Of a DNA stretch of 64,000 bases, positions 26,941 through 53,854 are shown piece by piece. The notes beneath the pieces were generated by a model. That model was not told the origin of the DNA. It made no database searches and was given only the letters and a program-made list of their open reading frames with translations. The translations under genes and the position numbers were made by a program. Source of the stretch: Patescibacteria group bacterium (lineage in GTDB: Bacteria > Patescibacteriota > Microgenomatia > UBA8517); assembly GCA_041742135.1 (NCBI GenBank), contig JBGSJG010000004.1:171773-235772 (forward strand), in the 5' to 3' direction. How positions within the stretch are numbered: the stretch's first letter is position 1; each line of letters starts with the position of its first letter.

Positions 26941-28566
26941 GTGCCAAAGAATAAAGCAGCTACCAGCCTGAGAAAAGTTACAACAAGTGCCTCGGTGATC
27001 ATTTCTGCAGTCGTGCTGATAATTCTTTTGGTATGGTCGCAGGCAAATAGCCTTAGTTCGCGTATTGGTGCTCAGACAACTAGCTTTGTTCAAGTTTCAG
27101 GCAGAAACCTAGTTTACAATGGGCAGAACGTTACCTTAAAAGGCACCAATTTTAACAACCTTGAGGCTCTAAATGCTGAGTGGGGCGAAGGTAGCGGGCA
27201 GTGGATTGGTGGAATCAATTCTAATATCGGCGAGCTAACGATTAACGAGGCGGATTATCAATTGTTGTCACAACTAGGCGCTAATCATGTCCGCTTTGGC
27301 ATTAGTTTTAGCTGGTGGAGGGACAACAGGACCGAGTTTTTTCGCGTAATGGATCAGCATATCCAGTGGGCTAGAGAGAATGACCTATGGATGGTTCTAA
27401 ACTTATTTACGACCCCGGGGGACTGCTACGAAGGCTACAGTGCATACTGCGACTTATATATAAACTCCACTGAACAGGAACAGCTTCGAGATTTTTGGAG
27501 AGATGTGGCGGCACATTATGCGAATGAACCGGTCGTTGCGGGGTACGATTTAATAAATGAACCTGTCAGTAGAGCCGAGGCAGGCTGGGGTTCCGGTTGG
27601 AAGAATTTAGCACAGTCTGTGGTAGACGTAATTCGCGAGGTCGACCAAAATCACGCGATATTTTATATGACGACTCCAGACCAAAGTTTCAGTAATGGTC
27701 AACTTAACGACAGCAATGTGGTTTACCAGATACACGATTATGCGCCTTTGGCTATGAGCCACTGTGGAACTAGTCCGGGGAGGATTACATACCCAGGAAC
27801 AGCTCAAGGTGTGTATTGGGATTTGGATAGCCAACTAAATGGAAGAGCGCTTAAAGACAGGTTGCCGGCCATAGAATGGACTATGGCTAATAATTTGCCA
27901 TTATATATTGGTGAGTGGGGAGCACAAGGAGATTGCTTGGCTGGAAGAGAGCAATACACTGCCGACAAGGCGACCATTTACAACGCGTGGGGATTGCACC
28001 ATGCTCACTTTGTTTGGCAAGGCAGCAGCCGGCACTGGGGACTTTTCCCTGCAGATAGTTCAAATCCTCACTCTTCCGCGATGCTTGCTGCGGTACAGAC
28101 GAGTTGGGCCGGTAGTGTAAGCCCAAATTTCTCTGGGACTGCTCCTGAATATCCGCCTGTCGGCACATTGCCTACGGGCCCTGGCGCACCTGTTGTTCCC
28201 GTTCCGTCTGGCGCGGGGCCTTTGGAACCCGGTACACCTGCGGTGACCACGCCTTCCGACACGGCCGGGGAAGTTGTTGGCGATTGTGCTCCCGAGCACA
28301 TCTCTACTGCAATTGGCTGCGTGCCTTTGGCTGATGTTCCAGAAATCGCGCGATTTTTTCTGCAGTGGGCACTAGGGACCGCTGGCGGAGTCGGAATATT
28401 TTTGATAGCCTTTGCGGCATATAGAATTTCGACTTCTCAAGGTGACCCGAGAAAGCTTCAAGGCGGGCAAGAGTTGTTACTTTCTGCAATTGGAGGCTTA
28501 GTAATGCTTGTCTTGTCAGTGTTTCTGCTCCGATTTGTGGGGGTTAATTTACTGGGTCTTTTTTAG
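26941..28566 (+). CDS. GH5-family glycoside hydrolase (cellulase/mannanase-like) with N-terminal signal anchor, Pro-rich linker and C-terminal TM segment.
   Basis: Catalytic acid/base in LINEPVS (NEP) and nucleophile in LYIGEWGAQGD (GEW). N-terminal hydrophobic VIISAVVLIILLVW. C-terminal PVGTLPTGPGAPVVPVPSGAGP linker + GLVMLVLSVFLLRFVG. Confidence 0.8.
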   Translation: MPKNKAATSLRKVTTSASVIISAVVLIILLVWSQANSLSSRIGAQTTSFVQVSGRNLVYNGQNVTLKGTNFNNLEALNAEWGEGSGQWIGGINSNIGELTINEADYQLLSQLGANHVRFGISFSWWRDNRTEFFRVMDQHIQWARENDLWMVLNLFTTPGDCYEGYSAYCDLYINSTEQEQLRDFWRDVAAHYANEPVVAGYDLINEPVSRAEAGWGSGWKNLAQSVVDVIREVDQNHAIFYMTTPDQSFSNGQLNDSNVVYQIHDYAPLAMSHCGTSPGRITYPGTAQGVYWDLDSQLNGRALKDRLPAIEWTMANNLPLYIGEWGAQGDCLAGREQYTADKATIYNAWGLHHAHFVWQGSSRHWGLFPADSSNPHSSAMLAAVQTSWAGSVSPNFSGTAPEYPPVGTLPTGPGAPVVPVPSGAGPLEPGTPAVTTPSDTAGEVVGDCAPEHISTAIGCVPLADVPEIARFFLQWALGTAGGVGIFLIAFAAYRISTSQGDPRKLQGGQELLLSAIGGLVMLVLSVFLLRFVGVNLLGLF

Positions 28567-28578: not shown

Positions 28579-31500
28579 TCATTCACTGAAATTGACACTC
28601 GCTCCACCGTTATATAGCTTTTTGACTTGTGCAGCAGACAGGGAATAGTTATAAATCCTAACTTCGTCTATTAGCCCAGCGAATAACTCCGTAGGGCTTG
28701 AACTCGCTCTAGCTCCAACAAGAGGAAGCTCTGCAGTTATGGCGCCACCATTTGCGGTGGTGTTAGCGCTAGTCGCTGCTGAAATGCCGTCGATGTAAAT
28801 TACCGAGCCAGATGCTGTGGAAAAAGTTGCCGTTATGTGGTGCCAGTCTCCATCGTTCACGGTACGTGTAGTCGCGATCCCCTCGATAATGTCACCAGAA
28901 GAATCAAAACGAATTAACCTAACTGTCCCCGCCGAATCAACTCTAAATTGCCACTGCCTCGAGGTGCCTGCAGAACCAGAGTCCTTGCCTACAACTTGCC
29001 CAATTGATTCGGAAGATGTTTTTACCCAGGCTGAAAAGGAGTAATCATTAGTTACTGCCAAACTGGCAGGTAGGGATACATAGTCATTTGTTCCATCAAA
29101 TTCGAGTGATGAGCTGAATTTTCCGTCTGAACCGTCTGCCCACATTTCTCCGGCCGCGCCAGCACAAGTTCCAACCGAATCATTAGTGCCTGATGTGTCT
29201 CCGGCTGTAATAGTTCCATTTAAGCCATTGCCGCTTGCGTCGTAAGCTGTGCTTCCTTGGCATTCATCAAGCCGCCAGTGGGCGATAGGCTCACCACGAT
29301 TGTAGTCATAAGCGATTTGAGAAGCTGTGCGAGCATAGTCGTATATTTTGAGATCATCGATTTGTCCATTAAAGTCACTAGCGCAAGAGACTCCACCTTT
29401 TTGGCCTAGGACGAGTTGAGGAGAGGTGAAATTGTAAGTTGAAGCGGCCGTGGTCCCTGTGGCCACAAGCTGGCCGTTTACCCAAAGTTGGGTACTATTT
29501 GCACCGACAAAAATCCCCGTAATGTGGTACCAAGTGTTTGCTTGCAGTCCAGTTGTGTATGTTGTGCGCTCTTGCGCGCCATCCCAGACGTAAAACGACA
29601 ATCTGCCAACATTGTCGATCATGAACCCTTTGTCTAGAGTGGTACTTGAATAACCGGTTTCAGTGAGCATTACTGGGCAGCTATATGAGCTACCGGGAAT
29701 CGCAGATAGCTTAATCCAGGTACTGAAAGTGATAGGAGAAGTTCCGGAAATATCAAGAGCACTTGCATCACCAGACTGAACATAGTCGCCAGAGGCATCA
29801 AAATTTAAGGCATTTCCTACTTTTCCTCTGGTCCATGTTGCATTTGTTATCGCGCCATCAATCGCATTACCGCTTCTGTCGCATACATCGTTTGCTCCGC
29901 CGGTGCATGTGTTGTCTTGCTTCTCGTCCATTGTCCAGTATGCAACTGGGGGGTTTCCGGCACCATCTGCAAGTTGGCTGGCCTCACTTGCAGCTGTAAC
30001 CCCAAAGTCTACTGAACTGCCTGCATTTAGGTCTTGGAAAACTTGGTCTTGCGACAGGGGAACATTGTACAGTCTGACATGATCGATTGACCCTTCGTGA
30101 TACCCCACACTTTCGACTCTGCCAATATCAAAATCGCTCGCACTAAGGCTTGTTTGAGTTGTTACTAAAACATGCGACCATACACCTGCGGCGATTGTAC
30201 TAGTTTGCTTGCCGTTTACGTAAATTGTCGGCGTGGTGAACCCTTGTGCTGTTACTGTCCCTGAATTTATCCAAACATACGCCGTGCCGTTTATGTCGAT
30301 CGGGTATTCGGTTGTTGTGGTTGGGTTAACCCAAAAGGAAACTGCATTGACAGTTGTAGGCCCAGTGCCTACGTCTACATAGTCGGCAGAACCATCGAAC
30401 AATAAACAACCTTGGATTTTGCAATCAGCCTTTGTTTTCCAAGTCGGGTCGTCAGTTGTTGCTGTCGCGTTTGCGCCCCGCGTACCGTTAAACGAAGATG
30501 TCAGTTTGCTTTCGTTATTGATAGTTTGCCCTTGCTGTTCATCAAGCGCATAAAACACAATTGGGTCAGGCAGAACATTTCCAGAAGCCAGAGAAGAAAA
30601 CCCAGCCATGTCTTGAAGAATTTGTTCGTTGGTTCTTGCGTAATTATAGATTCTGACATCGTCTATGGCGCCATCCATAGAATTGACGGTGCCTGAAATG
30701 TTCTCTCCGCCTATAATCAACTTGTCTTCACTTGATATATCATCAAACCAACTCGCGGTGGTGGAATCCCCAGTCACATATGTTAATGTAACTGGACTTC
30801 CATTAACAAAAAACGCGTTGCCTGTGCTGCTTACTCGAAAAGCAATGTGATTCCATGTTCCGTCGCTACTGGCGGCTCCCAAATCATACGAAGCCCTAAA
30901 CAGAGTTGACGTAGTTTTGAGTAGGATTTCCAGCGTATTGTTACTGCTAAACTGCATCCTGAATAAATGGTTAACTGTCCCGCTGTCTCCATAGTAGAAA
31001 AGTGGTTTGTTGATTCCGACTGCGGGTCGTTTAAACCATAGCTCAACCGTCCCACTACTGTTTGCTCCAATTACAGACGAGACATCCCCAAAATCAATAT
31101 GCTGGGTAGACCCACTGAAGTTAACTGCCGATCCATATTTACCCTGTACCCAAATTGGGGAATTGGTAAGAGTTCCAGTTATCCCACTACTTGAAGAATC
31201 CGCCACACTGGTCCCAGTTCCTTCTTCAAGTTTCCAATACCCAACAGGGCCTGGTGAAAGATTGTATAGATCTACCACTTCTCCCGGTGATAAATACCTC
31301 ATCCATGCTCGAGCTTCATCGATTGTTCCATCCATGTAGCTGGATGAAGCCCGTCCGATATAAAATTGGTTTGAGGTCGTGATGGCAGTCTCGCTTGTTA
31401 CTACTACATGCTGCCAGACATCTGCTGTGATGGTTTGGGTTTCAACGCCGTTTACATAATATTTGGGTAATGAAAAACCAGTCGCTGACAAGGTGCCTGA

Positions 31501-33540
31501 TGAGGAGCTTATGTATGTTGAGGCATTTAGGTTCATATAGTAGTTTGTATTACTATCAGGGTTTACCCAGAAAGCCACAGATTTTATTCCTGTCAAGGTT
31601 GATGCTGTTGAGAAATATTGATTCGAAGCGGGGACAAATTCTGCGGCATTTGCGTATTTTCCTCCAACGTATGTCGCAGTGCCGTTGTTTGTTAAGGTAA
31701 ATGGTAAGCTAGAAGAGTCAGCAGCGTTTCCGCTAGTTTCATCAAATTTCCAGTATCCAATTAATCCATTGGATAAATTACTGTTGCTTGCTCCGAGTAC
31801 GGCGGCGGCGCCGATTGCGTCTGCAAATACTTGACCGGCGCTTCTGGCGTATGGATATATTTTGACTTCGTCAATCACGCCATCAAAGTAAATAGTGCCT
31901 GAGTTGTTAATACTTCTTCCAATTGTTAGGCTTGAGTTATCGTAGGTTATTGCGTTGGAGTATACTGTAGTCGTCACCTCCGCACCGTTAATATAAAGAC
32001 GATATGTGGTGCCATCATATGTACCCTCAAGGTGGTACCAACTACCAGAGAGTAGCGATGTAGCATATGTCGCTCCTCGCCAAGCTGTGCTTTCAGCTGT
32101 CCAAAAAGCTACACTCCCGCCCGAATATCCAAGATAATAACCCTTCCCTGTGATGTTGGAGTTATTATTGTTTTTTATGACAAAGCCTTTCATGGTTGAT
32201 GCTCCAGACAAAGTGGAGCCGGGCTTTATCCAAGCGCTTACGGATAAATTCTGCGGCTCTAGTGTGTCGGAATCAGTAACGCTGATATAGTCTGCAGTCC
32301 CATCAAAATCCAAACATTTACCGCTTTTGCACAAATCACCATCGCGCCAAAGTGGGGTACCTGTTTCAACCCCTTCATTCTTGTTGTCGCTGCTATCGCA
32401 TACGTCACCCCCGGACGGGCAGGTATTAAATGCGCCCTCATCAAATTTCCATTCTCCGATTGGTCCTGGCGTAGTTTCTTCCGAAGCTACAGCAGCACTG
32501 GGTTCAGTAGCGCTGTACTTTCTAACCTTTGCCCATTCAACATCTCGTGAACCTGAAGCGCTTTGTGCAATTCCTAAATACATGTATAGCGAGCCTATGG
32601 TGTTTGTGCTATCGGTGCCCGAAACACTTGCAGAATAGTTAATAAATGTTTTCTGATTTCCTGTTGCCACCCAAGAGATGCCCCAAACCGAGCTGCTGGG
32701 GTAAGAAATTGCTGAGCTTGATACAACCGCACCTGTGGCTGCCGTGTCCAAAACAAGTCTGAAAAGGGCAGAGCAACAAAAGTGATCTATTGAGTAATTT
32801 GGGTAATAGTTTTCGTTTGCTTTTTGTGTAGTGGCGGTACTTTGCCCCATTCTAATAACCGTATTGCCGGTAGTTGCTGAACCAGTTCTTGCCTCAAGTA
32901 AAACTGGGTTGGTGAATGTTTGTCTCGAGTATAGCCAGTAGCTGTGATCATTCGCTCCAGACGTAAATGTTACTTTACCACCGCTAACTGCAGCTGAACC
33001 GCCTCCGTCTTGAACACCCCATTTGGCAGTGTCAATTGCCGTACCACTAAAGGTGTCAAAAAGCATGAAAGTTTCTTCCGGGTTTTGACCATTTGTTGCT
33101 GAAGGATTGCCATAATATACATACACAGTTGCACCGGTTGTTGGGATAGAAGGGATTTTGACCCAAATATTAGTATCAGTCTCGTTGCACATAAAGTCTC
33201 CTTCTTCAATCCAGAAGGGGAGAGTCTTGCCGTTTGCATCAGTTACTCGTACGTCGTCACAATCGGATTGCATTTTTCCTGCAGTAACCAAGGCGTTTGT
33301 GTCCATAACGATCTTTGTTTGAAAGTCGCTCAAGGCACCGCCGCTTGCGTTTGCTACATCAATACGTTTGCGATAAGCATACCCCGGATCGAACCATCCG
33401 GCTTCTGAAGATGATGGTTTAAAGAGCGAAACAGCAACTATAGGTAATAAAATCACCAACAAGCCTAGGGCGATATAAGTGCGCAACTTTATCTTTTTGG
33501 GTAATTTAATTGCTCTTAAGCGTGGGTGAATATTTGTCAT
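28579..33540 (-). CDS. Giant secreted/anchored protein (1653 aa): N-terminal signal anchor, DUF2341-like domain, ~6 LamG/concanavalin-A-like lectin modules.
   Basis: N-terminus is KLRTYIALGLLVILLPIVAVSLF. The DUF2341-like segment is GWFDPGYAYRKRIDVANASGGALSDFQ. The LamG_3-type module ends IDEVKIYPYARS, IDEARAWMRYLS, IDDVRIYNYART, IDHVRLYNVPLS, IDDLKIYDYART and IDEVRIYNYSLS recur. It lies 20 nt downstream of the previous giant gene. Confidence 0.8.
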   Translation of the reverse strand: MTNIHPRLRAIKLPKKIKLRTYIALGLLVILLPIVAVSLFKPSSSEAGWFDPGYAYRKRIDVANASGGALSDFQTKIVMDTNALVTAGKMQSDCDDVRVTDANGKTLPFWIEEGDFMCNETDTNIWVKIPSIPTTGATVYVYYGNPSATNGQNPEETFMLFDTFSGTAIDTAKWGVQDGGGSAAVSGGKVTFTSGANDHSYWLYSRQTFTNPVLLEARTGSATTGNTVIRMGQSTATTQKANENYYPNYSIDHFCCSALFRLVLDTAATGAVVSSSAISYPSSSVWGISWVATGNQKTFINYSASVSGTDSTNTIGSLYMYLGIAQSASGSRDVEWAKVRKYSATEPSAAVASEETTPGPIGEWKFDEGAFNTCPSGGDVCDSSDNKNEGVETGTPLWRDGDLCKSGKCLDFDGTADYISVTDSDTLEPQNLSVSAWIKPGSTLSGASTMKGFVIKNNNNSNITGKGYYLGYSGGSVAFWTAESTAWRGATYATSLLSGSWYHLEGTYDGTTYRLYINGAEVTTTVYSNAITYDNSSLTIGRSINNSGTIYFDGVIDEVKIYPYARSAGQVFADAIGAAAVLGASNSNLSNGLIGYWKFDETSGNAADSSSLPFTLTNNGTATYVGGKYANAAEFVPASNQYFSTASTLTGIKSVAFWVNPDSNTNYYMNLNASTYISSSSGTLSATGFSLPKYYVNGVETQTITADVWQHVVVTSETAITTSNQFYIGRASSSYMDGTIDEARAWMRYLSPGEVVDLYNLSPGPVGYWKLEEGTGTSVADSSSSGITGTLTNSPIWVQGKYGSAVNFSGSTQHIDFGDVSSVIGANSSGTVELWFKRPAVGINKPLFYYGDSGTVNHLFRMQFSSNNTLEILLKTTSTLFRASYDLGAASSDGTWNHIAFRVSSTGNAFFVNGSPVTLTYVTGDSTTASWFDDISSEDKLIIGGENISGTVNSMDGAIDDVRIYNYARTNEQILQDMAGFSSLASGNVLPDPIVFYALDEQQGQTINNESKLTSSFNGTRGANATATTDDPTWKTKADCKIQGCLLFDGSADYVDVGTGPTTVNAVSFWVNPTTTTEYPIDINGTAYVWINSGTVTAQGFTTPTIYVNGKQTSTIAAGVWSHVLVTTQTSLSASDFDIGRVESVGYHEGSIDHVRLYNVPLSQDQVFQDLNAGSSVDFGVTAASEASQLADGAGNPPVAYWTMDEKQDNTCTGGANDVCDRSGNAIDGAITNATWTRGKVGNALNFDASGDYVQSGDASALDISGTSPITFSTWIKLSAIPGSSYSCPVMLTETGYSSTTLDKGFMIDNVGRLSFYVWDGAQERTTYTTGLQANTWYHITGIFVGANSTQLWVNGQLVATGTTAASTYNFTSPQLVLGQKGGVSCASDFNGQIDDLKIYDYARTASQIAYDYNRGEPIAHWRLDECQGSTAYDASGNGLNGTITAGDTSGTNDSVGTCAGAAGEMWADGSDGKFSSSLEFDGTNDYVSLPASLAVTNDYSFSAWVKTSSESIGQVVGKDSGSAGTSRQWQFRVDSAGTVRLIRFDSSGDIIEGIATTRTVNDGDWHHITATFSTASGSVIYIDGISAATSANTTANGGAITAELPLVGARASSSPTELFAGLIDEVRIYNYSLSAAQVKKLYNGGASVNFSE

Positions 33541-33560
33541 GGAAATTTAATTTTATAATA

Positions 33561-36500
33561 TTAAGGCGTTCCACTAACAGGCCCGAAACGGCCGCCTGAG
33601 TTCTCGTTTACCAGCTTTTGAATCTGAGAGGAGGATAGAGCGTATTTATAGACCCGCACATCATCAATCTTGCCCGTAAAAAATTGACTACTAGAACCAA
33701 AGGCGCCAATCGTCGAGCTCAGAGTGTTTTCAGAAATTGTACCCGTAGCAGGCTCCGAACCATCAAGCTTACCATTAAGATAAAGTTTGACAGTAGTACC
33801 GTCATAAGTTGCAGCAATGTGATGCCACTGGTTGTTTGAAATTGTGGTTGAACTCGTGGTTGAGTCTGATGTTAAATCTGAAGATCTAAAACGAATTTTT
33901 CTGTCAAATACTCCTAAATAAAACCCCGATGTGTCTTTGTAGAAGACAACATCCAAGTCGCTTGAAGGCAAGGAAGTGCCATAAATCCAGGCAGATACTG
34001 TAAGTTGATAAAAATCTCTTAACAAAGACTGGTTGCCTAGGTTTATATAGTCGTTTGTACCATCAAACTCTATGGATGAGTTGTATTTTCCGCTCGCGCC
34101 ATCTGCCCGCATTTCTCCAGCACTCCCAGCACAAGTCCCAACGCTGTCGTTAGACCCTGTTGCGTCTCCGGGTTCGATTGTACCGGTCATCGCGTTTCCA
34201 CTCGAGTCGTAAACAGTTGTCCCTGTACACTCATCCATCTTCCACCAGCCTACTGGGTCACCGCGATTGTAGTCGTATGCAACTTGTGCTGGGGTGCGGG
34301 CATAATTGTAAATAATTACTTCATCGATAGCTCCATCAAATTTTTCACTGGGCGCGGTAGAAGGTGGCATAGAGCCTATCACAAAAGGAAGTGTGTTGTC
34401 GCTCATCAATTGAGTCACTGTGCCTTGATTTGAAATCATACCGTTTACGTAAATCCGTTCTGTGGTGCCATCCCTAGTGTAAACAATGTGGCTCCAGGTG
34501 TTTGCAGCGATATTTGCGGTAGAAGTAGCAAAGCTTTGCCAGCCGCTTCCGTTGAGATAGCTGACATAAATTTCGTCTTGGTCTAAGACTAGGCTATAGG
34601 CACGAGCTGACCAGTCGCCCGTGCTTCCTTTGTGTAGAAAAAGTTGATCGTCGATGGATACTGAATCTGGTTTGATCCAAGCTTCAAGGGTCATGTTGTC
34701 GCCAAGGCTGAGTACACTATTGTGGTTTACAGACACGTAGTCATTACTTCCATCAAAGCGAATGGCAGAGCCGTATTTGCCTAAATCCCAAGTTGGGCCG
34801 TTGGTCATGATCAGGTCGTTGCTGTTTTCCGAAGTGTCACAAGCGTCGTTACTGCCACCACTGCAAGTGTAGTTTTTGTTTTCGTCGAAACTCCATTTGC
34901 CAACTGGTGGATTGCCGGCACCATCGACAACTTGTGTGCTTTCACCCAATGCAGTAGAGCCAAAACTGGAAACAGAATTGGCATTCATATCTATCAATAT
35001 TTGGGGCGCAGTTAAATCATCCGAATAAATTTTGACATCATCTATAAAACCTGTGAAGCCGGTATTCGTCGCTTGGCTGTCATCGCTGTCGTAATCGCCG
35101 ACGGTAAAGTCAGCAGTAGTCCCGCCTTCAATCCCCAAGAAAGATCCGTTGGCTGTGTTTGATGCTACATGGTTTCCGTTTACATAAAGTTTCAGATCCC
35201 CAGCAGCTCCAGCTGCGCCTCCATTAAAAGTGAACGCAACATGATACCAAGTGTTTACTGCCGCGGTATTGTCGCTTGCTACAGCGGAGATCACTTGGTT
35301 GGCCGACTCGTCGTAGATTTCAATTCCAAAATGAGACGATGTGGAGTCGCCATCCATAAACATTCTGTAAGCCCGCTGGTCCGTGGATCCATCGTGTTCC
35401 CATTTTGCGATTATGGCGTCTTGGTCGCCCGAGGCGGGGAGAGTTGTTGAGTAAACCCAAGCACTGCCGCTAAATGCTTCACCTGCGTCAAAATCGACGT
35501 TGCTATCGGAAGCTGTAGCAATAGTTACTACGTCTCCAGTTCCGTCAAATTGCAAACAGCCGTTAATTTTGCAGTTTGCTTTCGATTTCCATAGTGCGTT
35601 AGCGACTGTACCATCAGTGCCCAAGTCGACATCGTTGTAAGCGGTTGCGCCTTGAGCCTCGTCAAATTTCCAAAAGATCGTCTGTGAGCCGATTGGTGAG
35701 CCTCCCAGAGGATGCCCGCCGTTCATGTCTTCGATGATTTGCCCATTTGTCCGTGGATAGTTATAAACCCTTACGTCATCGATGTAACCATTGAATGCTT
35801 GGGTCGGCGCATCGCTTCTGGCGGCTCCAATCGTTGTCCACTCATCTAGAAGCGGAGTAACCCAAGCAGTCCAAGCTCCATCGTTGTTAAAAATCTGCTC
35901 TCCGTTTATGTATGCAATCACATGTCCGTTTGGATTATCCCAAGTCAAAGCAACATGAAACCAATCCGTTTCAGCAGTGGAGTAATCATAGGCAACTATG
36001 TCAGAAGAATTGGTTCTAAAATAAAAACGTAAATCGTTACTAACCGAACTTTTAGCTATTTCAAATCGATCGACGTTACTGGGAACGAAGTGGAATATCT
36101 GTCTGTAACTTCCATCTGTCCAAACGTTGGCGTTTCTAACCTTTATCCAAGCCGCCAGAGTGCCGCTGTTACCATTAAAATCGTCGCTAAAACCTGTGCT
36201 ATACATGTCAATAGCGTTATCGCTGCCGTCAAAAGTTAGTGCTCCACCATATTTTCCTTGAACCCAGTCGGTTGTAGCAAAATTTTCACCTGTACCAGAA
36301 TTATTGTTTCCAGAACTATCTACTATGGTTTCGGTTGTTGAAGTTTTATCTAAGCGGTAATAAGCAAATGGCCCTGGTGCCCAGTTGTAAAGCCTTTGAA
36401 TCTCTGATCCCGATAACGCACGGTTGTAAACTCTTGCTTCATCTATGTACCCGTCATAGTATCCCGTAGCACCTCCTGTTGAGTCTTCGGCTCCGATATG

Positions 36501-47800: not shown

Positions 47801-50800
47801 AGTGCTCAATGTTGAGCTGAAAACTCCAGAGGTTTGGGTGAATCCTGTAACTGCACCCAAGGCTCCAGAGTTAACGTTTAATCCATTTAACGATCCGGTT
47901 GTGGCTGCAGTTAATGTGCCACCAGTGGAAAGGTTTCCGGAGTCATCGATCGTGACTGATGAGTTTTGGATAAGCTTGCCTGTTGTCAAATCAAATCTTG
48001 CAATGGCGTGATCTGTTGAGCTTGCTGGGCCGACCACGTCACCTGTTCCACCTACACCAGCGCAGTTTCCAGTTGATAAACAAAATTCTGCGTCGCTGCC
48101 CTCGTAGGGGATGGTGTAAGTTCTGTCCGCTGTTGGGTCTTCAGCAATAATGTATAAATCGTTGGCGTCGTCGGTTGAGCCTTCAATTTCAAAGATATTC
48201 TGCCAGTCTTCACCGATTCGGATTGCAGATTCAATTACGGTGGCATCAACTGAAGCTAGGTTATTGATGTTTATTCCATAAAGCTCGTCTGCGTCACCTG
48301 TGTTGGCTGAAGTAACATCGATATTCAAGGCTGAGACTATGTCTGCATCGGCATCTGCTCCAAGAGTCAGGTTGAAATCAAACATTGTGCCGGAATTGGT
48401 AATTGTCTTGGTTGTGTACAAATTGGTGCCATCATCCAAGAGGTTTGATGAGGTTATCTCGCCTGCAGTTGAGCTAAACTTTGTCAGTGCATTTGTTGTT
48501 TGGCTGGTGTAGCTCACTCCGCCCCCACCTGAGCCAAAACAGTTACCTTCGGTTGTACATACAGTTCGATTATCAGTGATAACTGGAAAAGTGAGCGTAT
48601 ATGCTCCGCTTGTTTGATCTGCAAAGGCAAGGGTCAAGTCGTTTGTGGCCAAGTCGACAGTTGTGTTACCAGAAAGAGTGGGTGAAACGAGTGTCTTGTT
48701 ACTTAGCGACTGCTGTAGTGTTGTAAATACGAAAGTGTCATCAGCAGACAGAGCGGGGATAGTAGCGATTCTTGAGGCTCCACTTGGTGCAGTAACGGAT
48801 AGTGTGAGATCGTTTGACCCTTTTTCAAAAAGGAAAGTTCCATCTGCTTGGATTCTAAATCTTTCAGTTCCTGATGCCCCTCCTGTTAAGAAACTTAGGT
48901 ATCCGTCTGTGCCGGAAGGGGAGTCGCCTGAGGCCAGTACCAAGTTTCCACCAGCACCTGTTGTAAGACCGCTTCCAGCTATTACGCTCAGAGCGCCGCC
49001 TGCATTGCCGTTTGTAGAAGCATCCGAGCCTGTGATTGCATAAGCTGTTCCGGTCGCTGCGTCTAGGAAGTTCAGGCTACTGTCAAATGAACCTGTGACT
49101 GTGATCGTGTCTGCCGCAGCGTCCCCAAAATTAAGATTTCCCTGAAATGTGTTTTCTCCAGTAAATATTTGAGTTACATCAAGAAGCGCAAACGTACCTG
49201 AACCGTCAGGAAGAGTATATGTTCTGTCGTCAGTTAAATCTTCTGAAGTAATTGTGCCTGTGAATGCATTGGTTGCAGTTAGATTCTGAGGCTCGATCGC
49301 GATAGAATCAGTATTGGCAAGATTATTGCCAAACGTGGCCTTTTGGCCGGTAGTTAAATCTACACTAAAAGCTCCTTGAGTCTGAGTAAATCCTAGAACC
49401 CCTCCGATTCTGTCTGTGATATTTACATCTCCACCGGAAGAATTGATGGTCAAGTCTCCAGTGTCGCTTACGCTGAAGCTTGTAAATGCGCTTCCATCTG
49501 TCTCTGTAAGCCTCAGTTTTTCGTCGCTCGTTGTCAAGATATCAAGTGCCGCATCGGGGCCTGCTGTTCCGACTCCCACTTTTCCATCTGTGAGTATTGT
49601 TAAAAATGGATTAGTACCGGGGGTTGCTCCGTCTCCAATTTGGAACAGATCATCATCATCGTTTCCATTGTCATCAACAACTCCTGCCCAGAACTTGGTA
49701 TCTGAAGCTGCTCCTGCATTAAAGATCAAGCTTGGATCTTCCTTTGTTAAAGTTATATCTCCAAGATCAGAGATGGTGACTGTTGAGTCTTGTATTAATT
49801 TGCCTGTTGTTAAGTTAAATCTTGCAATTGCGTTGTCTGTGGCACTTGCTGGGCCAACAACATCTCCACCTGTGCCAGTGGCTGAGATGGTCAGGGTCTT
49901 TGTGGAATTGTCTGTTGCTAGTGTTACTCCTGTTCCTGCCGCCACATTCAAGGCTGTGGTAGTTGAGCTGGGTGTAATTGTTGTTTGGGTTGGAACCACA
50001 ATTGAGGAGAACAAATTCTGATCTCCAGTGTTCGTGCCTGAGAGTGTGGCATCTCCGTTAACAGTCAATGTCCTTGAAGACCCAGTACCTCCAGCAATGC
50101 TAAACTGGCTTGCTCCTTCAGTTAAGGTTAGGGCGTTGTAGGTGAGGGCAGTAACTGCTCCGAGGTTGTCTACCTGGAATGGGTCTCCGCTTCCCACTGT
50201 GAATAAAGCGGCAGGCGAGCTGTCTCCAATCCCTACATTGCCACCGAGGAAAGAAGCAGCGTATGTAGTATCGTTTGCGTTTGCAGTTGTTACGTCAATG
50301 TATGCTCCATAGATTGTATTAGTTAAAGTTCCTGCATCGGTAAAGCCTATGTCAAGTCCTCGCAGGGTGTTGGCAGAGCTTGATGCGTTATTAGTTAGAT
50401 TGATATCTATTGCACTCTGTGTGCCACCTGCAGTTGGGATGTATGTAGCAGTCAAATCAAAGGCGTTTCCGGTTGTCAGCCCTGTACTTGCAAGGGAGAG
50501 CAAGTTTTCTGTATCAGCGTCTAAATCAAAACTAAAGTTGGCGCTTGAGCTTAAAACTCCGTCGCCCGTGAAGTATGCAATTTGTGTGTCAGCTTGAGTA
50601 CCGCTTTCAGTTACACCGCCACCTGCACCTGCACAGTTTCCCGTTGATAAACATAGATCTGCATTAGCAGTGAGGCTTGGAATTGTGAGTGTAAATGCGC
50701 CGTTTGTCTGGTCTGCCACTGCGAGAACCAAGTCGTTAGTGGCTTCATCAAAGGTAAGATTGCTATCAAATGTCCAAGCACCGTTAAAGTCTCCATCATC

Positions 50801-53359
50801 AATAGTGGTCGTGCCGAGGTCGAGGGTTCCCGCGGACAGGGAAGCGGTACCGTCTGAAAATGACGAACCAACAAATGCACCAGCTGTCGACACGGACCAA
50901 TCGTTGCCGCCAGTTATGGCGACCGTTGTGCTGGCGTTACTGTTTCCAATACTCAATGTATCAGCAGACGTACTATTAGTTGCTATATTGATAGTGTTTG
51001 TTAGATCTGTATCAACGCCGCCAATGTCTATTGTCCGAGCTGCTCCAGCGGATCCACCTGCCAGTGAGTCGCCAATGTTAAACGGGGAAGTGTGAGAGCC
51101 AAAATTGACATAGTCAATTGATACATCTATTTCGTCCGCAGGGTCTTCGTTAACCAAGAAATCGTAAGCATTGAAGCTAAGAACTGTCCCATCAACTTCG
51201 CTTCCACCTTCTTCTTTTACGCTTACAACGGCCGAGCTTAAGCCACCCGTGTCGTCAGCACAGTACCAGCCACCTGAAGTGCCAGCCCCGCCGTCATCTA
51301 AATCCGTGTCCCACTTAAGAACCTGACCTGCTGTACAGCCTCGGATTAAAGATAATCCGTCTGAAATCACCTCAAGACCAGATACGCTCGAGTTTGTGGC
51401 CGAGGCAGCAAAAGTTGTACCCGTGGCCAAGGTCAAAGCATCGGCATCAAGTTTGCCAGTCGCTAAGGTCAGCGCTTCATTCCCGCTACCTGCATATAAA
51501 ATGCCATCAAGTTCAAATGATCCTTCGACATATGCGTCTTCGCCGTTAAGAGACTGGGTCGGGGTGCCATTTCCAATTTTCAAATTGCCTGCTAAGACAT
51601 TAAGTAGGCCATTTGCTCCAACTGTAAGATTTACATTGCCTGATGCATCAGCTGTTAGGATTGGGTCTGTAACTCCTACCCCCGAAGAGTACAAGGTTAA
51701 GCTGCCATTTAGAGATTCGTCAACACCTGCGCTGAAGCTTCCGGTTGATACATCAAAGAAAAACGGAGCAGTAGATGATGTTCCCCCAAATGCCACATCA
51801 AAGCCAGCCGTGCTACTGCTGTTTGTCGGGTAAATTACATCGGGAGTGGGAGTTGTGTTTACTGTCCACTTTGAGGAGCCAGAGCCGACCGCGGAGCTTA
51901 TGTCTTCAAGCACAGTCTGCAGGTCAGTTGCTAGAGTCTGCGAAATGCTTGTGTTATCTACGCCTATTAGTCCGGCACCTGAGGCACCCGCCGCAAAATC
52001 ATTCAAGCCAATCGCGCCAATTGTGAGATCGGCTCCTGTGGCTAGTGTTAAATTACCACTGTTGTCTATTGTTACAACATTGGTTCCATCTGATTGTTCA
52101 AACACTGCAAGCAGGGAAGTTTGAGTCGCATTTGCCTGCACAAGCAATTGGATTTCATCTGTGTCCCCGTCAACGGCCAATTTTGCCAAATCGGTTGAGC
52201 CACCTATGTTGACATTGTCGGTTGTTGTCGTAAGAGCTACCAAGGTCCCGGAATCAGACCAAGCATTAACAACCGACCCTGCGACGTCCGTCCAGGTAAA
52301 TGCGCTGGTTGAAGAGTTGTAAGTAAGAACATAGCCGTTCGTGGGTGAGTTCGATGCGTTTAGATCTACTTCAGTAATAGTACCATCTGCTATTTCGCTT
52401 GTATCAATAGAGTCTCCCAAGGGTGAAACAGTTGCTGTTAGCGCGCCATCCACAATTGATATGCCAGTACCAGTAAAATCAGTGACTGTATCAGTACCGA
52501 GAGTAAAAGAAGCAGCTTGTGCATCTCCATCTATGGTTGCGTCAAGGGCTACACTTAGAGATCCGGATAACGTATTATTTACCGCAAAGAGATTTCCGTT
52601 GAACTCAGAATCTCCGGAAACAAACAAATCACCGTCTTCCAAATCAATATTTGCTGCTAAGCCGTCACCGATTGAAACTCCGCCGCCCAGAGGTTGAATC
52701 AACAAATCCTCGCTTGAAACAAGTTCGTTGCCAATCAAGTTAAGCGTACCTTCAATATTGACATCGTTCGTAAAGTTAGACTCTATGTTTACATTAAATT
52801 GGGTTGATAAAAGTGAATCGCGAGTGGCAAGAACTTGGCTTGTTTTATACGCAAAGTTAACATTTTCTGTGCCTAAAGACGTGCGGAAAAGAGGAAGCGA
52901 CTCTTTAGACCGATCAATAATGCCGGAATTTAAAATTAGCAGGCTTACGATTGTGAAGACGACTGTGAACTTAACACTTCTTGCTATTCTCTCTTGTTTT
53001 AAATGCAAAGGTCTAAAAATTCGAGGTTGATATTCCGCATTTGGTGCTTTTTGTGTTTCTTTGCGCTGTGGCAAGGGAGCACTAAAGCTCTGTTCTGGGT
53101 AAGCTTGAAACGGTTTTGGGGCAGGTGGTACATGCTTCGGAAAAGCCTGCACAGGAGTGAACGAGGGAGCCTGGATTGTGGCTTGCTTATGATGGCTTCG
53201 TTTAAACGAAATGAGGTCAGCTAATAGGTATCTGCGGTGGCCACCCTCTGTGCGCTGAGCATTTATCTTGCCGCTTTCTTCCCACCTTCGAAGAGTTTTT
53301 GAGGAGACTTTCAGGTAAGTGGCGGCCTGTTGGATTGTTAGATACTTTTGGGCTGGCAT
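38861..53359 (-). CDS. Giant 4832-aa protein: N-terminal excisionase/MerR-type HTH, single TM helix, very long Thr/Ser/Gly/Asn/Asp-rich modular extracellular region with internal repeats, coiled-coil-like segment and C-terminal module.
   Basis: The frame is continuous over 14.5 kb. The N-terminus YLTIQQAATYLKVSSKTLRRWEESGKINAQRTEGGHRRYLLADLISF matches the HTH_17/excisionase pattern. The TM helix is FTVVFTIVSLLILNSGII (aa ~130-147). Modules recur (e.g. DDDDLFQIGDG, GGAATTFNIGPTGSGAGN...GCTLDQSNGNL, GALDIDAQTANVDFEVGEGTDTGDFRIWDG). A 192-aa unit is repeated at ~85% identity. Confidence 0.8.
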   Translation of the reverse strand: MPAQKYLTIQQAATYLKVSSKTLRRWEESGKINAQRTEGGHRRYLLADLISFKRSHHKQATIQAPSFTPVQAFPKHVPPAPKPFQAYPEQSFSAPLPQRKETQKAPNAEYQPRIFRPLHLKQERIARSVKFTVVFTIVSLLILNSGIIDRSKESLPLFRTSLGTENVNFAYKTSQVLATRDSLLSTQFNVNIESNFTNDVNIEGTLNLIGNELVSSEDLLIQPLGGGVSIGDGLAANIDLEDGDLFVSGDSEFNGNLFAVNNTLSGSLSVALDATIDGDAQAASFTLGTDTVTDFTGTGISIVDGALTATVSPLGDSIDTSEIADGTITEVDLNASNSPTNGYVLTYNSSTSAFTWTDVAGSVVNAWSDSGTLVALTTTTDNVNIGGSTDLAKLAVDGDTDEIQLLVQANATQTSLLAVFEQSDGTNVVTIDNSGNLTLATGADLTIGAIGLNDFAAGASGAGLIGVDNTSISQTLATDLQTVLEDISSAVGSGSSKWTVNTTPTPDVIYPTNSSSTAGFDVAFGGTSSTAPFFFDVSTGSFSAGVDESLNGSLTLYSSGVGVTDPILTADASGNVNLTVGANGLLNVLAGNLKIGNGTPTQSLNGEDAYVEGSFELDGILYAGSGNEALTLATGKLDADALTLATGTTFAASATNSSVSGLEVISDGLSLIRGCTAGQVLKWDTDLDDGGAGTSGGWYCADDTGGLSSAVVSVKEEGGSEVDGTVLSFNAYDFLVNEDPADEIDVSIDYVNFGSHTSPFNIGDSLAGGSAGAARTIDIGGVDTDLTNTINIATNSTSADTLSIGNSNASTTVAITGGNDWSVSTAGAFVGSSFSDGTASLSAGTLDLGTTTIDDGDFNGAWTFDSNLTFDEATNDLVLAVADQTNGAFTLTIPSLTANADLCLSTGNCAGAGGGVTESGTQADTQIAYFTGDGVLSSSANFSFDLDADTENLLSLASTGLTTGNAFDLTATYIPTAGGTQSAIDINLTNNASSSANTLRGLDIGFTDAGTLTNTIYGAYIDVTTANANDTTYAASFLGGNVGIGDSSPAALFTVGSGDPFQVDNLGAVTALTYNALTLTEGASQFSIAGGTGSSRTLTVNGDATLSGTNTGDQNLFSSIVVPTQTTITPSSTTTALNVAAGTGVTLATDNSTKTLTISATGTGGDVVGPASATDNAIARFNLTTGKLIQDSTVTISDLGDITLTKEDPSLIFNAGAASDTKFWAGVVDDNGNDDDDLFQIGDGATPGTNPFLTILTDGKVGVGTAGPDAALDILTTSDEKLRLTETDGSAFTSFSVSDTGDLTINSSGGDVNITDRIGGVLGFTQTQGAFSVDLTTGQKATFGNNLANTDSIAIEPQNLTATNAFTGTITSEDLTDDRTYTLPDGSGTFALLDVTQIFTGENTFQGNLNFGDAAADTITVTGSFDSSLNFLDAATGTAYAITGSDASTNGNAGGALSVIAGSGLTTGAGGNLVLASGDSPSGTDGYLSFLTGGASGTERFRIQADGTFLFEKGSNDLTLSVTAPSGASRIATIPALSADDTFVFTTLQQSLSNKTLVSPTLSGNTTVDLATNDLTLAFADQTSGAYTLTFPVITDNRTVCTTEGNCFGSGGGGVSYTSQTTNALTKFSSTAGEITSSNLLDDGTNLYTTKTITNSGTMFDFNLTLGADADADIVSALNIDVTSANTGDADELYGININNLASVDATVIESAIRIGEDWQNIFEIEGSTDDANDLYIIAEDPTADRTYTIPYEGSDAEFCLSTGNCAGVGGTGDVVGPASSTDHAIARFDLTTGKLIQNSSVTIDDSGNLSTGGTLTAATTGSLNGLNVNSGALGAVTGFTQTSGVFSSTLSTTNSATFSSSTANTDTIAIKPQTTSAAASFTGTLTSLDLTGSDKTWSLPNTTGTIALTSDIPTSDNYQNWVLQADAGSNQNVTTGYIVDFSGSNGITTTAGANSLAIAGVDATTSTKGVASFNDSYFTVTSGDVTIDDIYLRNNGDEGTGAYTFSLVNGAGASANSVTLSGTLGAFDNSDTFRGLYLNYANANHTGSTNAFYGIDIAGITADAEATENALNIGAGWDNGIYSGSNITLAANTLLDLSAIDPESTSSYGLKLPTGTSLSSTGPGGSAEGYLAYESDTNLVKVWDGSAWASISGASTTLQQAYTSGNTIDITSGEGALDIDAQTANVDFEVGEGTDTGDFRIWDGATNWLLVDEGADTIQLGAAAGNGLILGDAATGDNSAEVSIFSSDWEISSAGAITGATYEGLTITTSTGTLDIANGKTLNIDNSLTFAGVDSDTWTFPAATGASGTVVGRDEQQTLTNKTLTSPRIGTAILDTNGNELINLTATGSAVNELTLANAAALGNPTWTATGASTDIGISNILKADGTFGLSSTTANSDTISIKPQTTSAASFTGTLTSLDLTGSNKTWSLPNETGTICTTGSVCTGYQAAGTYDNYVSWSVADDDTDTYAIVASNILRFTSSDGNVLTNLTNGDDGDENLDFTVNLLGDLVAGAGLTGGADNILVGADVDRTVTVGDGVGITVNADDIAFNATELDDIIWSDNANASNTWTFDVSGTDPQLIFGNNTITVGAGTLATDESTFNLINTTATTLNLGGAATTFNIGPTGSGAGNILLAGGSGDTGCTLDQSNGNLNCSGTITGSNGALASTLQNAYDNDANGSDSLITLSGDDDSLIFRNPTASAGTDSAFVLQLDNIDTGVTTADFKNLYVTNAGTFDTTAGNLATYGGYYLNSATESAGGNALNNYGIYTQASGGDYNNAINAYALNTSSSARTLLGVYASAYDLGTASSGTATVKGLYADSVAGVNSTGSNITGYGVHINAQFGGGAGTITGYGLYINANAGPADSYHSIYSAGGQSYHAGNFGIGDSSPAAALSVGNGDLFQVSSTGDVSFVGTGDLITKASSGDADDLDISVTGATNSSLILSSAGTGADALSLNTSAGGIDINSAGNVTVDTTDGSITLTAGGASNGDITLAATDDISINGTAGSALNIGTSNVTQTINIGLATNIDLALTDPNWSITGAGAGTLASLLVDSTTLDANSLSSSGALGLNSTGANLSLTTTTSGDISLDPAGGGDITLVTANASGSYLNISGLTSGSGNALCVDGSNNVVTCTVGSGGVSGSGTEDFLPRWDSSGSNLVDSALSDNDTTLSIAASRNLSVLNVNAAAGSSNAATLSGTLGAFDNSDTFRGLYLNYTNADHAGTSNAFYGIDIAAITGDAQATENAINIGSGWDSNLFFNDTTTSIGIADTGVFTLEDAAGNDLLTLTDNSNAGDLSITGDLVVSGGNITGPSGAALVVAGDASQALTLTGNAASVWSTTAGNLSVLANSDTANLLLGGGDTLPSQVADGNDVDIRAEDDIILNASGDIRLYDGGAALNCSGSANGGVLTTDANGVITCGDDDTGASSVTLQTAYNNDTDTGNTTIAFTAADDSIVFSNPDATGTDSAFIFQLDNLDTTADGITDYLLLNTASTDTTADAIDVSDAGFFNAINVGANNIAGTTAVINFDNFDVASTGNITVAAGVGLDTNGAGELQLGYTTATTVSVGTTAATTLNLGAGGALTRAFNIGTGTGADTINIGTGGSTADDINIGGLATSTIGLLGVTSVGDGGATNYAQFNATGDLTFVGTADTIVGPATFNLLNSASTQINFGGAATTFNIGPTGSGAGNIVFAGGSGDTGCTLDQSNGNLVCSGNITGAATGTVGYWTRTGTTLTTATGADNVTVDGTLDANGVFTIGDGGDTGAISSTTLDIDATGALQINSSGGAISIGNDAVAQAINIGTGSAARTITVGNNTGASALAFTSGTGAQTFTSSAATTGAFAFVGDSISSGTGFDLSFDALAGGKGINLTSTSTAVTTGNLFSSSLSGASAFSGNLNLFEFSGAATATGDLVRINLGASSNIGNLLNITDNGTTLFSVSESQITSALPHQFTSAGDVSFAYDIIMANQTASNISSLGPITLEAGESFESNDLTLKTYNAGDLVADIGGNLVVSSADPAIVFDTLTATDTDFWMAVIEDAGGDDDDLFQIGDGTTIGTNPFLTVNTSGGVGIADVSPSGTWLDIGANTTAIASLRLNASSAVNVSSPAIGDLWFNGTNLNFRKDGSTTVDLLAAGTTPTLQQAYEAGETIDVDSTNGALTIAGVSANIDFEIGSGTDTGDFRIWDGTNNWLLVDEDASTVNLGNANGATALNLTSGTGAQTFTSSASTTGSFAFVADSITSGTGFDLSFDGLAAGKGINLTSTSTAVTTGSLFSSSLSGASAFSGNLNLIEYTGAATATGDLLRINIGASSNVGNLFNITDNGSSLFAVNETQITSALPHQFTAAGDVTMAYDLVFTNQTASVVKSYGPLTIESGESFENQNLTLKTYGTGKIIADGGFSLGAQETLEDSTTPSVGGASHFVAANSTNRLVTTFDDGTAGQIIVIESSDTDLDFDCAGSEATINCGNVDLAAAAGDIFVWIYDGTVWNLINFMESNSDQTGSDLAEWFPANGEIAAGEVVSIDGSDPIKVQRALESDGQRVIGIVSTDPGLILGQAEEGIPYAQVALAGRVPVKVDPTSAAIANGDLVGAAATAGMAKKVDGGWVIGRALEAWTPGSGQETVTVFVNPIYVNQTQFAQTNYDQQILDLQSSLSLIQSQLDLGEETSSSGVFTDLTVNQLTVLEDAVLSDTVINGKLNIGTIQIDNANNSIDAIGALKIQPLALGNIEFMGGLISFDTNGNIVAQTVTAEKYKVAGASAGTGILLSGTTEVEIESDLVNASSLILVTPKAALAYPMAVTAKEEGVGFTVSVQFPENYDVEFDWFIVDKN
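40145..40720 (-). repeat. Intragenic direct repeat, copy 2 (576 bp; aa 4214-4405).
   Basis: The protein segment ALNLTSGTGAQTFTSS...LTLKTYGTGKIIADGGFSL. See copy 1. Confidence 0.8.
41315..41890 (-). repeat. Intragenic direct repeat, copy 1 (576 bp; aa 3824-4015 of the giant protein).
   Basis: The protein segment ALAFTSGTGAQTFTSS...LTLKTYNAGDLVADIGGNL aligns to copy 2 over 192 aa with no gaps. The nucleotide anchor cattgtctgttatgtt occurs at 41551 and 40381 (offset 1170 nt). Confidence 0.8.
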
Positions 53360-53400
53360 TTGGGCATTTATTGATTACTGAAATATTAGACTTTTAATCT

Positions 53401-53430
53401 TAGACATTAAGCTTGATTTGTCCAATTTCA
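53401..53430 (+). promoter_or_regulatory. Distal copy of a ~30-bp direct-repeat motif (ttagaCattaaGcttgaTttgtccaAtttc) in the divergent intergenic region upstream of the giant gene.
   Basis: It matches 53792..53822 at about 26/30 positions. It contains a TTGATT -35-like hexamer and the tgtcca core. Confidence 0.4.
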
Positions 53431-53833: not shown

Positions 53834-53854
53834 CAGTTTAACTAGCATTAAAAG

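Follow-up and report, generated by a model that had tools for sequence, protein, structure and literature searches.

A conserved gene cluster encoding a giant helix-turn-helix-bearing protein, predicted to form a surface fibre, and its lectin-module partners in Patescibacteria

What does a bacterium do with a gene of 4832 codons that is followed at once by two further giant genes? The question is raised by a 64,000-nt stretch of DNA (hereafter the window) from a Patescibacteria group bacterium (contig JBGSJG010000004.1, positions 171,773 to 235,772), in which the giant gene, denoted G, stands upstream of two partners encoding 1766 amino acids (aa; L1) and 1653 aa (L2). Our best reading, which we hold to be probable, is that G forms a trimeric, N-terminally anchored surface fibre with L1 and L2 as co-expressed lectin partners, the whole serving attachment, a function that we infer from sequence. 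The three open reading frames (ORFs) lie intact on the minus strand, with exactly the coordinates, lengths, overlap and gap that an initial annotation of the window had claimed for them:

38861 to 53359, minus strand: G, the giant gene, 4832 aa (ORF, domain matches and full-length homologs).
33561 to 38861, minus strand: L1, 1766 aa, with a KIRLRTW signal-anchor, a DUF2341 domain (aa 89-158) and 7 LamG modules.
28579 to 33540, minus strand: L2, 1653 aa, with a KIKLRTY signal-anchor, a DUF2341 domain (aa 93-176) and 6 LamG modules.

The 3′ end of G reads GAC AAG AAC TGA, and the ATG of L1 opens at the A of this stop codon (TGATG, a 1-nt overlap at 38861). The spacer between L1 and L2 is 20 nt long and AT-rich. 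Direct reading of the upstream sequence revealed no Shine-Dalgarno-like motif before the start of G, L1 or L2. That the giant ORFs are an assembly artefact of collapsed or chimeric repeats is hardly credible. G does have internal duplications, but the best pairs of DNA repeats in the region are merely 74-79% identical, which makes repeat collapse or chimeric assembly unlikely; moreover, all three frames are free of the splitting frameshifts about which the initial annotation had warned, and collinear homologs occur in 10 independent assemblies, including one closed 810-kb chromosome. An NCBI contig also encodes the identical 4832-aa protein.

The C-terminus of G resembles the folding unit of a phage tail spike and is made up of the following elements:

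39887 to 40093, minus strand: aa 4423-4491, beta-sandwich resembling Phage_depo_C (PF25692, below cut-off).
39839 to 39844, minus strand: codons of S4506 and D4507, predicted autocleavage point between ..QTGS and DLAEWF.. (alignment with 3gqh).
39455 to 39841, minus strand: aa 4507-4635, beta-tulip autochaperone domain like D4 of phi29 gp12.
39350 to 39451, minus strand: aa ~4637-4670, long helix, probably a coiled coil (AlphaFold2 (AF2) helix 257-290 of the modelled fragment).
38864 to 39187, minus strand: aa ~4725-4832, terminal beta-sandwich ending FDWFIVDK (AF2 confidence score, pLDDT, >90).

An AF2 model of the last 452 residues of G, based on an alignment of 22 homologs, has a mean pLDDT of 76, with values above 90 over two cores, and places a further beta region between the helix and the terminal sandwich. 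Read from the sequence, the helix has a heptad-like spacing of I and L, and the terminus FDW[FW]IVDK is kept at most loci. The family profile of the 22 sequences (A1) matches the gp12 fragment 3gqh (E = 1.3e-6) and the 'chaperon domain D4' of the tailspike Dpo31 (E = 3.4e-6). In the alignment, D4507 of G falls opposite the residue with which the released gp12 fragment (DFAEYFE) begins; within the motif D-x-A-E, D4507 and E4510 are at least 90% conserved among the 22 homologs. The C-terminal domain of G has the beta-tulip fold of the released fragment, and a gp12-type cleavage-site motif is positioned at its N-terminal edge. Just upstream, the beta-sandwich at aa 4423-4491 is modelled with pLDDT 72-84 and reaches 20.1 bits against PF25692 (cut-off 25), a family to which the homolog P0004 is assigned with 29.5 bits. 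Matches to K1-lyase_C (PF24146) in the homologs P0004, P0007 and P0011 score 14.5-23.3 bits, all under the 27-bit cut-off. Searches of viral structures and sequences with the C-terminus of G return pre-neck appendage, tail-fibre and jumbo-phage virion proteins. The tandem beta-tulip D4 of phi29 is an autochaperone that is required for spike trimerisation and is absent from the virion (PMC9863714; bioRxiv 10.1101/216911), and in the account relayed by the second of these sources Xiang et al. 2009 saw D4-like sequences in some bacterial adhesins. By analogy, we predict a trimerisation-dependent autocleavage of G between S4506 and D4507.

The initial annotation had described G as a modular beta-repeat fibre rich in Thr, Ser, Gly, Asn and Asp. 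The composition (T 13.5%, G 12.3%, A 11.3%, S 10.2%, D 8.3%, N 7.4%) and the fibre-like character stand; the protein is not an anonymous repeat, since it carries a helix-turn-helix (HTH) domain and a single transmembrane (TM) helix in addition to the gp12-type C-terminus. Its repeats are dispersed rather than tandem duplications, with at most 74% protein identity. The features upstream of the C-terminal unit are:

53192 to 53344, minus strand: aa 6-56, MerR/HTH_17 (BldC/excisionase-like) DNA-binding domain, predicted cytoplasmic (Pfam and PDB match).
52913 to 52987, minus strand: aa 125-149, hydrophobic helix, predicted N-in/C-out signal anchor (hydropathy scan).
51860 to 52807, minus strand: aa ~185-500, conserved membrane-proximal base of the ectodomain (homolog comparison).
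41315 to 41929, minus strand: aa 3811-4015, distal module, copy 1 (duplicated 390 aa downstream).
40145 to 40759, minus strand: aa 4201-4405, distal module, copy 2 (SALPHQFTAAGD...TNQTAS...GESFE..NLTLKTYG).

The HTH is the sole domain that Pfam finds in G (PF00376, 40.5 bits, cut-off 28.2; PF12728, 39.9 bits, cut-off 27), and it also passes TIGR01764 (32.3 bits, cut-off 28.8). The closest PDB structure is BldC (6ama, E = 2.5e-5), with the wing RT.GGHRRY kept (RTEGGHRRY in G); the score against the BldC subfamily NF033787 is 42.2 bits, below its cut-off of 77. Residues 1-100 are matched by 8/8 homologous giants with a mean identity of 51.5% and are at least as conserved as the ectodomain. The linker between the HTH and the TM helix is Pro-rich and weakly conserved (matched by 1/8 homologs). 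The segment at aa 125-149 is the only hydrophobic helix of G, with basic residues flanking its N-terminal side, and all 8 full-length homologous giants have a single TM segment within aa 107-185. This pattern suggests an N-in/C-out topology in which ~4,680 residues would be exported.

Conservation along the ectodomain is concentrated at its two ends. In a map of the 8 giants, the HTH is matched in 8/8, aa 200-500 in 7/8, aa 3800-4400 in 7-8/8 and the C-terminus in 5-8/8. The base is collinear in 7/8 homologs with 42-54% identity, and aa 180-420 are matched by many giants in the protein databases. The two copies of the distal module, found in 7-8/8 homologs, are 74% identical in protein and 74% in DNA. 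The shaft between them and the base (aa 500-3800, window positions ~41960-51860) is a mosaic whose modules reappear at other relative positions in homologs, and its length varies across the family in giants of about 2,000 to 7,954 aa, as would be expected if fibre modules were shuffled by recombination.

Downstream of G, the two lectin-type proteins are paralogous, each with a signal-anchor, a DUF2341 domain and 6-7 LamG modules with IDEVRIYN-type ends, and here Pfam, pairwise alignment and a motif search bear out what had been proposed from the letters. L1 and L2 share 37% identity over 551 aa (E = 5e-88) and 31% over the first 170 aa. With a Pfam cut-off of 23.4 bits for DUF2341, L1 scores 45.4 and L2 87.5 bits; Laminin_G_3 is matched over 7 stretches in L1 (546.8 bits, E = 4e-166) and 6 in L2 (360.5 bits, E = 1e-108). 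A regular expression for the module end, ID[ED]V[RK][IV]Y, finds 7 in L1 and 5 in L2, where a sixth variant, IDHVRLYN, was read by eye. The nearest homologs bear the name 'DUF2341 domain-containing protein'. Each protein has one hydrophobic segment, at its N-terminus:

38754 to 38831, minus strand: L1 aa 11-36, conserved hydrophobic N-terminus K[IV][KR]LRTW[IV]xLG (hydropathy).
33406 to 33495, minus strand: L2 aa 16-45, the same N-terminal motif, then ..SSEA/GWFD (hydropathy).

This signal-anchor motif, followed by ..A/[AG]W[FM][DN], is present in the LamG partners of the window and of the related loci L001, L002, L003, L023 and L024, and is otherwise absent from the ORFs of the window and loci, except for one short frame with a stop codon in L024. 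It is kept although the rest of the LamG partners is just ~25-35% identical, and its position recalls the YSIRK-type motifs of signal peptides; it may be a dedicated sorting signal. No LPXTG with a hydrophobic tail was found at the C-termini, which read ...FDWFIVDKN (G), ...GRFGPVSGTP (L1) and ...GGASVNFSE (L2), and sortase anchoring was rejected, as the hydrophobic segments of all three proteins are exclusively N-terminal. L1 and L2 also match the family of TafC, a haloarchaeal Tat-fimbria subunit (NF052521), with 228.8 and 137.8 bits, and membership was rejected on these scores against the equivalog cut-off of 410 bits. Several modules match TafC and share its LamG-like fold, a generic LamG similarity (PMC11821415), whereas L1 and L2 have neither a Tat signal nor TafA and TafE partners.

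Homologs were searched with the C-terminal 452 aa of G, its N-terminal 420 aa and aa 1-369 of L2. A scan of one genome per species used an 8-sequence C-terminal alignment (A2), the 22-sequence A1 being too diverse, and yielded 21 patescibacterial loci. At 7/21 of these (L001-L007), the match belongs to a giant that has the HTH, the base, the distal module and the C-terminus, and one or two L1/L2 homologs come next. The giant of L007 is seemingly split into two adjacent, overlapping open frames (969 and 790 aa), and that of L006 has its 5′ end cut off by the contig end. A search of 1.84 billion proteins added three giants in the same arrangement (L022-L024; 4865, 5623 and 5587 aa). The pairing of an HTH giant with DUF2341/LamG genes, for which the initial annotation had proposed a synteny check, thus recurs in 10 other Patescibacteria assemblies (L001-L007, L022-L024), mostly of the Microgenomates type. 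The full-length giant homologs (L001-L005, L022-L024) span 2056-5623 aa, and the giant family comprises 46 clusters at E <1e-30, many of 2,000-7,954 aa. The nearest protein relatives come from Gottesman-, Woese-, Ames-, Levy- and Uhrbacteria and unclassified Patescibacteria. These relatives mark the organism as a patescibacterium, as the initial annotation had supposed, and as one of the Microgenomates type.

The position of the cluster in the chromosome is conserved as well. In the window, one flank holds ComEC, ArgRS, MgtE, an M16 peptidase, an ADK-like kinase and a GH5 glycosidase, and the other holds iPGM and F-ATPase genes. The ATP synthase-iPGM side recurs in L004, L005, L007 and L022-L024, with the order ATP synthase - iPGM - divergent 255-261-aa ORF - HTH giant - LamG gene(s) in the last three. 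Downstream, ArgRS and the M16 peptidase are also present in L003, and L023 has ADK - M16 peptidase - ArgRS as in the window. A site fixed across species argues for vertical inheritance rather than a mobile or prophage cassette.

The initial annotation had drawn the unit too small. It is not confined to three genes and includes a divergently transcribed membrane protein of 252 aa and operator-like repeats common to both directions:

53855 to 54613, plus strand: 252-aa gene, with a signal peptide, a beta-tulip ectodomain (aa 27-150) and a C-terminal two-helix membrane hairpin.
53429 to 53458, minus strand: predicted promoter-like box TTGACA - 17 nt - CTTAAT upstream of G (read from aligned upstream regions).
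53400 to 53424, unstranded: operator-like element TGGACAAATCAAGCTTAATGTCTAA with inverted TRGACA half-sites, 41-65 nt before the ATG of G.
53792 to 53816, unstranded: second copy (88%) of the 25-nt element, 39-63 nt before the 252-aa gene.

The ectodomain of the 252-aa protein aligns with the beta-tulip of G (hhalign probability 99.4%, E = 6e-22), with the D..E motif replaced. A homolog lies divergently upstream of the giant wherever that flank is visible (L004, L005, L007, L022, L023, L024). The hairpin is strongly conserved (..GVEAIGRNPLA..) and bears a faint likeness to the ATP-synthase c subunit. Kinship with that subunit is unsupported: 1/4 homologs match PF00137 (E = 0.026, below cut-off), and the profile has no PDB match.

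The 25-nt element occurs twice in the whole window and not at all in shuffled sequence. At 7/8 loci, a TTGACA-~17 nt-CTTAAT-like box is followed by 2-3 TRGACA/TGTCYA motifs at -16 to -67 of the giant; apart from the window, upstream regions with TRGACA motifs are found in L001-L005, L022 and L023, and in L023 the motif is present at both ends of the intergenic region, as in the window. There are 17 copies of TRGACA in 8 x 130 nt (1,040 nt), 21-fold more than expected from the background of 7.6e-4 per nt (Poisson P ~3e-17). BldC binds DNA repeats as cooperative multimers (PMC5859096), which makes the HTHs of the giants obvious candidates for TRGACA binding. A terminator scan of 53200-54000 found none, and Rfam has no match in the cluster region, its only matches in the window being three tRNAs elsewhere.

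Gene structure, domain homologies, the fold of the C-terminal domain, synteny and motif enrichment are observed; a working model built on them predicts topology, trimerisation, cleavage, adhesion and DNA binding. G would be a type-II membrane protein whose ~120 N-terminal residues, with the HTH, stay in the cytoplasm while the one TM helix anchors it. Outside the cell would follow the conserved base, a shaft of shuffled modules, the conserved distal module and, at the C-terminus, a unit made up of beta-tulip, coiled coil and beta-sandwich. On the analogy of gp12, this unit, leaving the translocon last, would nucleate trimerisation and zip up the shaft; it may then cleave itself between S4506 and D4507, in which case the new N-terminal peptide would begin DLAEWFPANGEIAAGEVVSIDGSDPIK. 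The product would be a trimeric fibre on three TM helices, with a length of roughly the cell width; the dimensions of phage fibres suggest, as a rough estimate, about 100-250 nm. G, L1 and L2 would share a transcript, L1 being translated by termination-reinitiation at TGATG and L2 next. Exported through their own KLRTW signal-anchors, L1 and L2 would together display 13 LamG (concanavalin-A-like) modules, whose likely targets are glycans or different ligands carried by a host cell or particle. The 252-aa protein, with its presumably non-cleaving beta-tulip and the operator-like element that it has in common with G, would probably take part in docking or assembly with the fibre.

A regulatory extension of this model is tentative. 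Assembly of the fibre would cluster the HTHs in threes, and these could bind TRGACA at the two divergent promoters; that the HTH of G binds the repeats and autoregulates the module is possible, at less than even chances. A stronger version, in which G is a membrane-tethered transcription factor and the oligomeric state of its BldC-like HTH is dictated from outside the cell by a phage-derived autochaperone, we consider doubtful. If it held, only exported, trimerised or host-loaded fibres would present three HTHs that bind TRGACA cooperatively; the cell would read the assembly or engagement of its own fibre and tune the module, and possibly other genes. Such a system would be a prokaryotic counterpart of MYRF/Notch-type logic, with similar parts differently arranged.

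Several observations weigh against the fibre model or parts of it. An AF2 model of the G monomer over aa 4096-4521 has a pLDDT of 52 except in the beta-sandwich, a value that is compatible with an obligate oligomer and proves nothing; as this model of the shaft is uninformative, the trimeric state is proposed on analogy. The beta-tulip fold also occurs in capsid decoration proteins that do not cleave, and cleavage of G is not guaranteed by the fold. G itself scores 21.7 bits against Peptidase_G2 (PF11962), below the cut-off of 25, which the homologs P0007 (27.6 bits) and P0011 (26.0 bits) pass. Release of the gp12 fragment is said to need ATP (attributed to Xiang et al. 2009), and ATP is absent outside the cell. 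The ~200 conserved residues beyond the beta-tulip would be odd in a domain that is discarded. The translational coupling claimed in the initial annotation is plausible at the G-L1 junction and only there: from giant stop to LamG start, relatives have -1 to 1484 nt, so that adjacency is kept and overlap is not. LamG modules bind many types of ligand. As to regulation, L007 lacks TRGACA repeats, and the repeats could be the site of another regulator or a hairpin in the 5′ untranslated region.

The same conservation can be read with signalling as the primary function and adhesion as the secondary one. G would then be a membrane-tethered factor whose ectodomain senses contact or mechanical load, and its HTH would be activated, or released by regulated proteolysis, on fibre assembly or host binding, in a ToxR/Notch/MYRF-like logic. 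The HTH is indeed the most uniformly conserved segment of the giants (8/8 homologs), its DNA-binding wing is kept, conserved TRGACA repeats lie at the module's own promoters, and MYRF joins a DNA-binding domain, a TM helix and a tail-spike chaperone in a self-processing membrane-bound factor (PMC3742443). We regard this reading as unlikely, because the autochaperone of G is at the far extracellular end, so that its cleavage could not liberate the HTH, the cluster has no linked gene for a site-2 protease or rhomboid, a 4,350-aa shaft is superfluous for a sensor and the linker between HTH and TM helix is weakly conserved. A structural envelope layer, an S-layer-like coat or spacer without specific attachment, would suit the match of one LamG module to the 'S-layer domain-containing protein' structure 4qvs (E = 7e-8), the conserved core-genome position, which suggests a housekeeping role, and the giant proteins thought to form the fibrous surface of Vampirococcus, a bacterium of the candidate phyla radiation (PMC8080830). 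Pfam finds no SLH or other wall-binding domain, however, a mosaic shaft in giants of 2,056-7,954 aa suits interaction and variation better than a lattice, and a phage-type fibre terminus with multi-lectin arrays is typical of receptor binding; we give a coat little credence.

Two further readings draw on the phage-like and hemagglutinin-like annotations. The likeness of the C-terminus of G to phage pre-neck appendage and tail-fibre proteins, and the match of L1 and L2 to PHROG 'virion structural protein' families, could point to a cassette of prophage tail-fibre genes or a tailocin-like remnant. Such an origin is very improbable: no other phage gene is nearby, the flanks being ArgRS, M16 peptidase, ADK, iPGM and ATP synthase, the chromosomal position is conserved across species, the TM anchor and signal-anchors are foreign to virion proteins, and the GC content of the cluster is barely above that of its flanks. 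Contact-dependent toxin delivery of the FhaB/CdiA type, with a C-terminal effector released, is suggested by one homolog annotated 'filamentous hemagglutinin family', by the frequency of FhaB-type annotations on giant Patescibacteria proteins (PMC11809585) and by the predicted cleavage of the C-terminal piece. A TPS domain, Fil_haemagg repeats and a TpsB partner are all missing (Pfam; housekeeping neighbours), the C-terminus is the best-conserved part rather than polymorphic, and no immunity-like small gene comes after G, because L1 begins at its stop codon; we rate this reading as extremely improbable. The attachment fibre remains the reading that we prefer.

The surroundings of the cluster hold some other features. 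The GH5 gene, of a cellulase family (26941-28566, plus strand), is convergent with L2, the stop codons being 12 nt apart, and the C-terminus of its product scores 21.1 bits against T4SS_pilin, below cut-off. On the other side, a row of F-ATPase genes (54606-61053, plus strand; b-like, delta, alpha, gamma, beta) directly follows iPGM, and no recognisable a or c subunit genes are in view in the window or in L022-L024. Farther away, an ORF that joins an IS200-like Y1 transposase domain to an SH3 domain (11239-12378, minus strand) adjoins a tRNA (12491-12563, plus strand), and a 251-aa ORF (14824-15579, minus strand) has weak matches to phage-integrase N-terminal domains; these ORFs may be a mobile-element remnant ~14 kb from the module.

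In two relatives, small Avd-like genes (PF05635 23S_rRNA_IVP, PF22296 bAvd) are interleaved with the LamG genes, a hint of diversity-generating retroelements:

L024, 26798-27163, 31669-32052 and 32756-33136: Avd-like genes.
L022, 28806-29162: Avd-like gene.

No reverse transcriptase or pair of template and variable repeats was seen in the fetched flanks of L022 and L024, and none of the 23 window ORFs scanned against Pfam (a part of those of at least 90 aa) matches a reverse transcriptase or Avd. Hypervariation by a diversity-generating retroelement was rejected for the window, where the repeats are 74-79% identical without an A-specific mismatch pattern and form no template/variable pair.

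Little is understood of how host-dependent Patescibacteria recognise and hold their partners beyond a few cultured Saccharibacteria. The module is a defined, conserved four-gene set in mostly uncultured lineages of the Microgenomates type, and it offers predictions on a trimeric fibre whose self-cleavage site can be mapped, on 13 lectin modules and on a 25-nt candidate operator. By its likeness to gp12, it would put the folding device of a phage tail spike to work in an exported protein of a cell and use the beta-tulip a second time, in a small membrane partner. Should the HTH be functional, a cell that has very few regulators would couple transcription directly to surface assembly or contact.

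Among described systems, phi29 gp12 is alike in having the D-x-A-E-x-F motif exactly at the cut position and a D4 domain that terminates a long fibre rich in beta structure and is immediately preceded by a depolymerase-type beta-sandwich. Unlike gp12, G is cellular and membrane-anchored, is ~6x longer, must fold extracellularly without ATP, has no recognisable pectin-lyase-like enzymatic domain and carries the ~200 additional conserved residues after the beta-tulip. Membrane-bound one-component regulators such as ToxR and CadC share the topology predicted for G, in which DNA is bound by an N-terminal domain in the cytoplasm and a single TM helix leads to a domain outside; they use an OmpR-type winged helix and a small periplasmic sensor, with no MerR-type HTH or 4,680-aa fibre. 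BldC of Streptomyces and excisionase-type MerR-like HTH proteins share with G the minimal MerR-type HTH and the RT.GGHRRY wing and have no coiled-coil or effector domain, but BldC is a free 68-aa developmental regulator, whereas in G the domain forms one chain with a TM helix and a giant ectodomain. Like G, MYRF combines a DNA-binding domain, a single type-II TM helix and a tail-spike chaperone that drives trimerisation (PMC3742443, PMC8326128). Its DNA-binding domain is of the Ndt80 type and its S74-type chaperone lies between that domain and the TM helix, so that cleavage frees the factor. The order in G differs (HTH, 6-56; TM, 125-149; chaperone of the G2 type, 4507-4635), and as the chaperone is extracellular, beyond the TM helix, its cleavage could not free the HTH.

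The closest company is that of other giants from ultra-small bacteria. The frequency of DUF2341 on giant proteins of Patescibacteria has been remarked on in a general way, and no full-length homologs or operon context were given for those annotated FhaB/DUF2341 (PMC11809585); giant membrane proteins have been described in Vampirococcus (PMC8080830), and adhesins are essential in a saccharibacterium (PMC11665869). Those giants are likewise very large, N-terminally anchored and suspected of adhesion, with DUF2341 here residing in the partners, but they were reported as single proteins, whereas the present cluster is multi-gene and conserved across species. The literature search yielded no description of a BldC-like HTH and TM helix fused to such a fibre, nor of such a fibre in a fixed set with KLRTW-DUF2341-LamG proteins and a membrane protein of the beta-tulip type, under common operator-like repeats. 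The initial proposal of an undescribed system holds for the cluster as far as the searchable literature goes, and has to be narrowed for DUF2341 on giant proteins, which was already on record. We rate the cluster as belonging among giant bacterial surface fibres and adhesins, with the HTH fusion and the fixed partners as its new elements.

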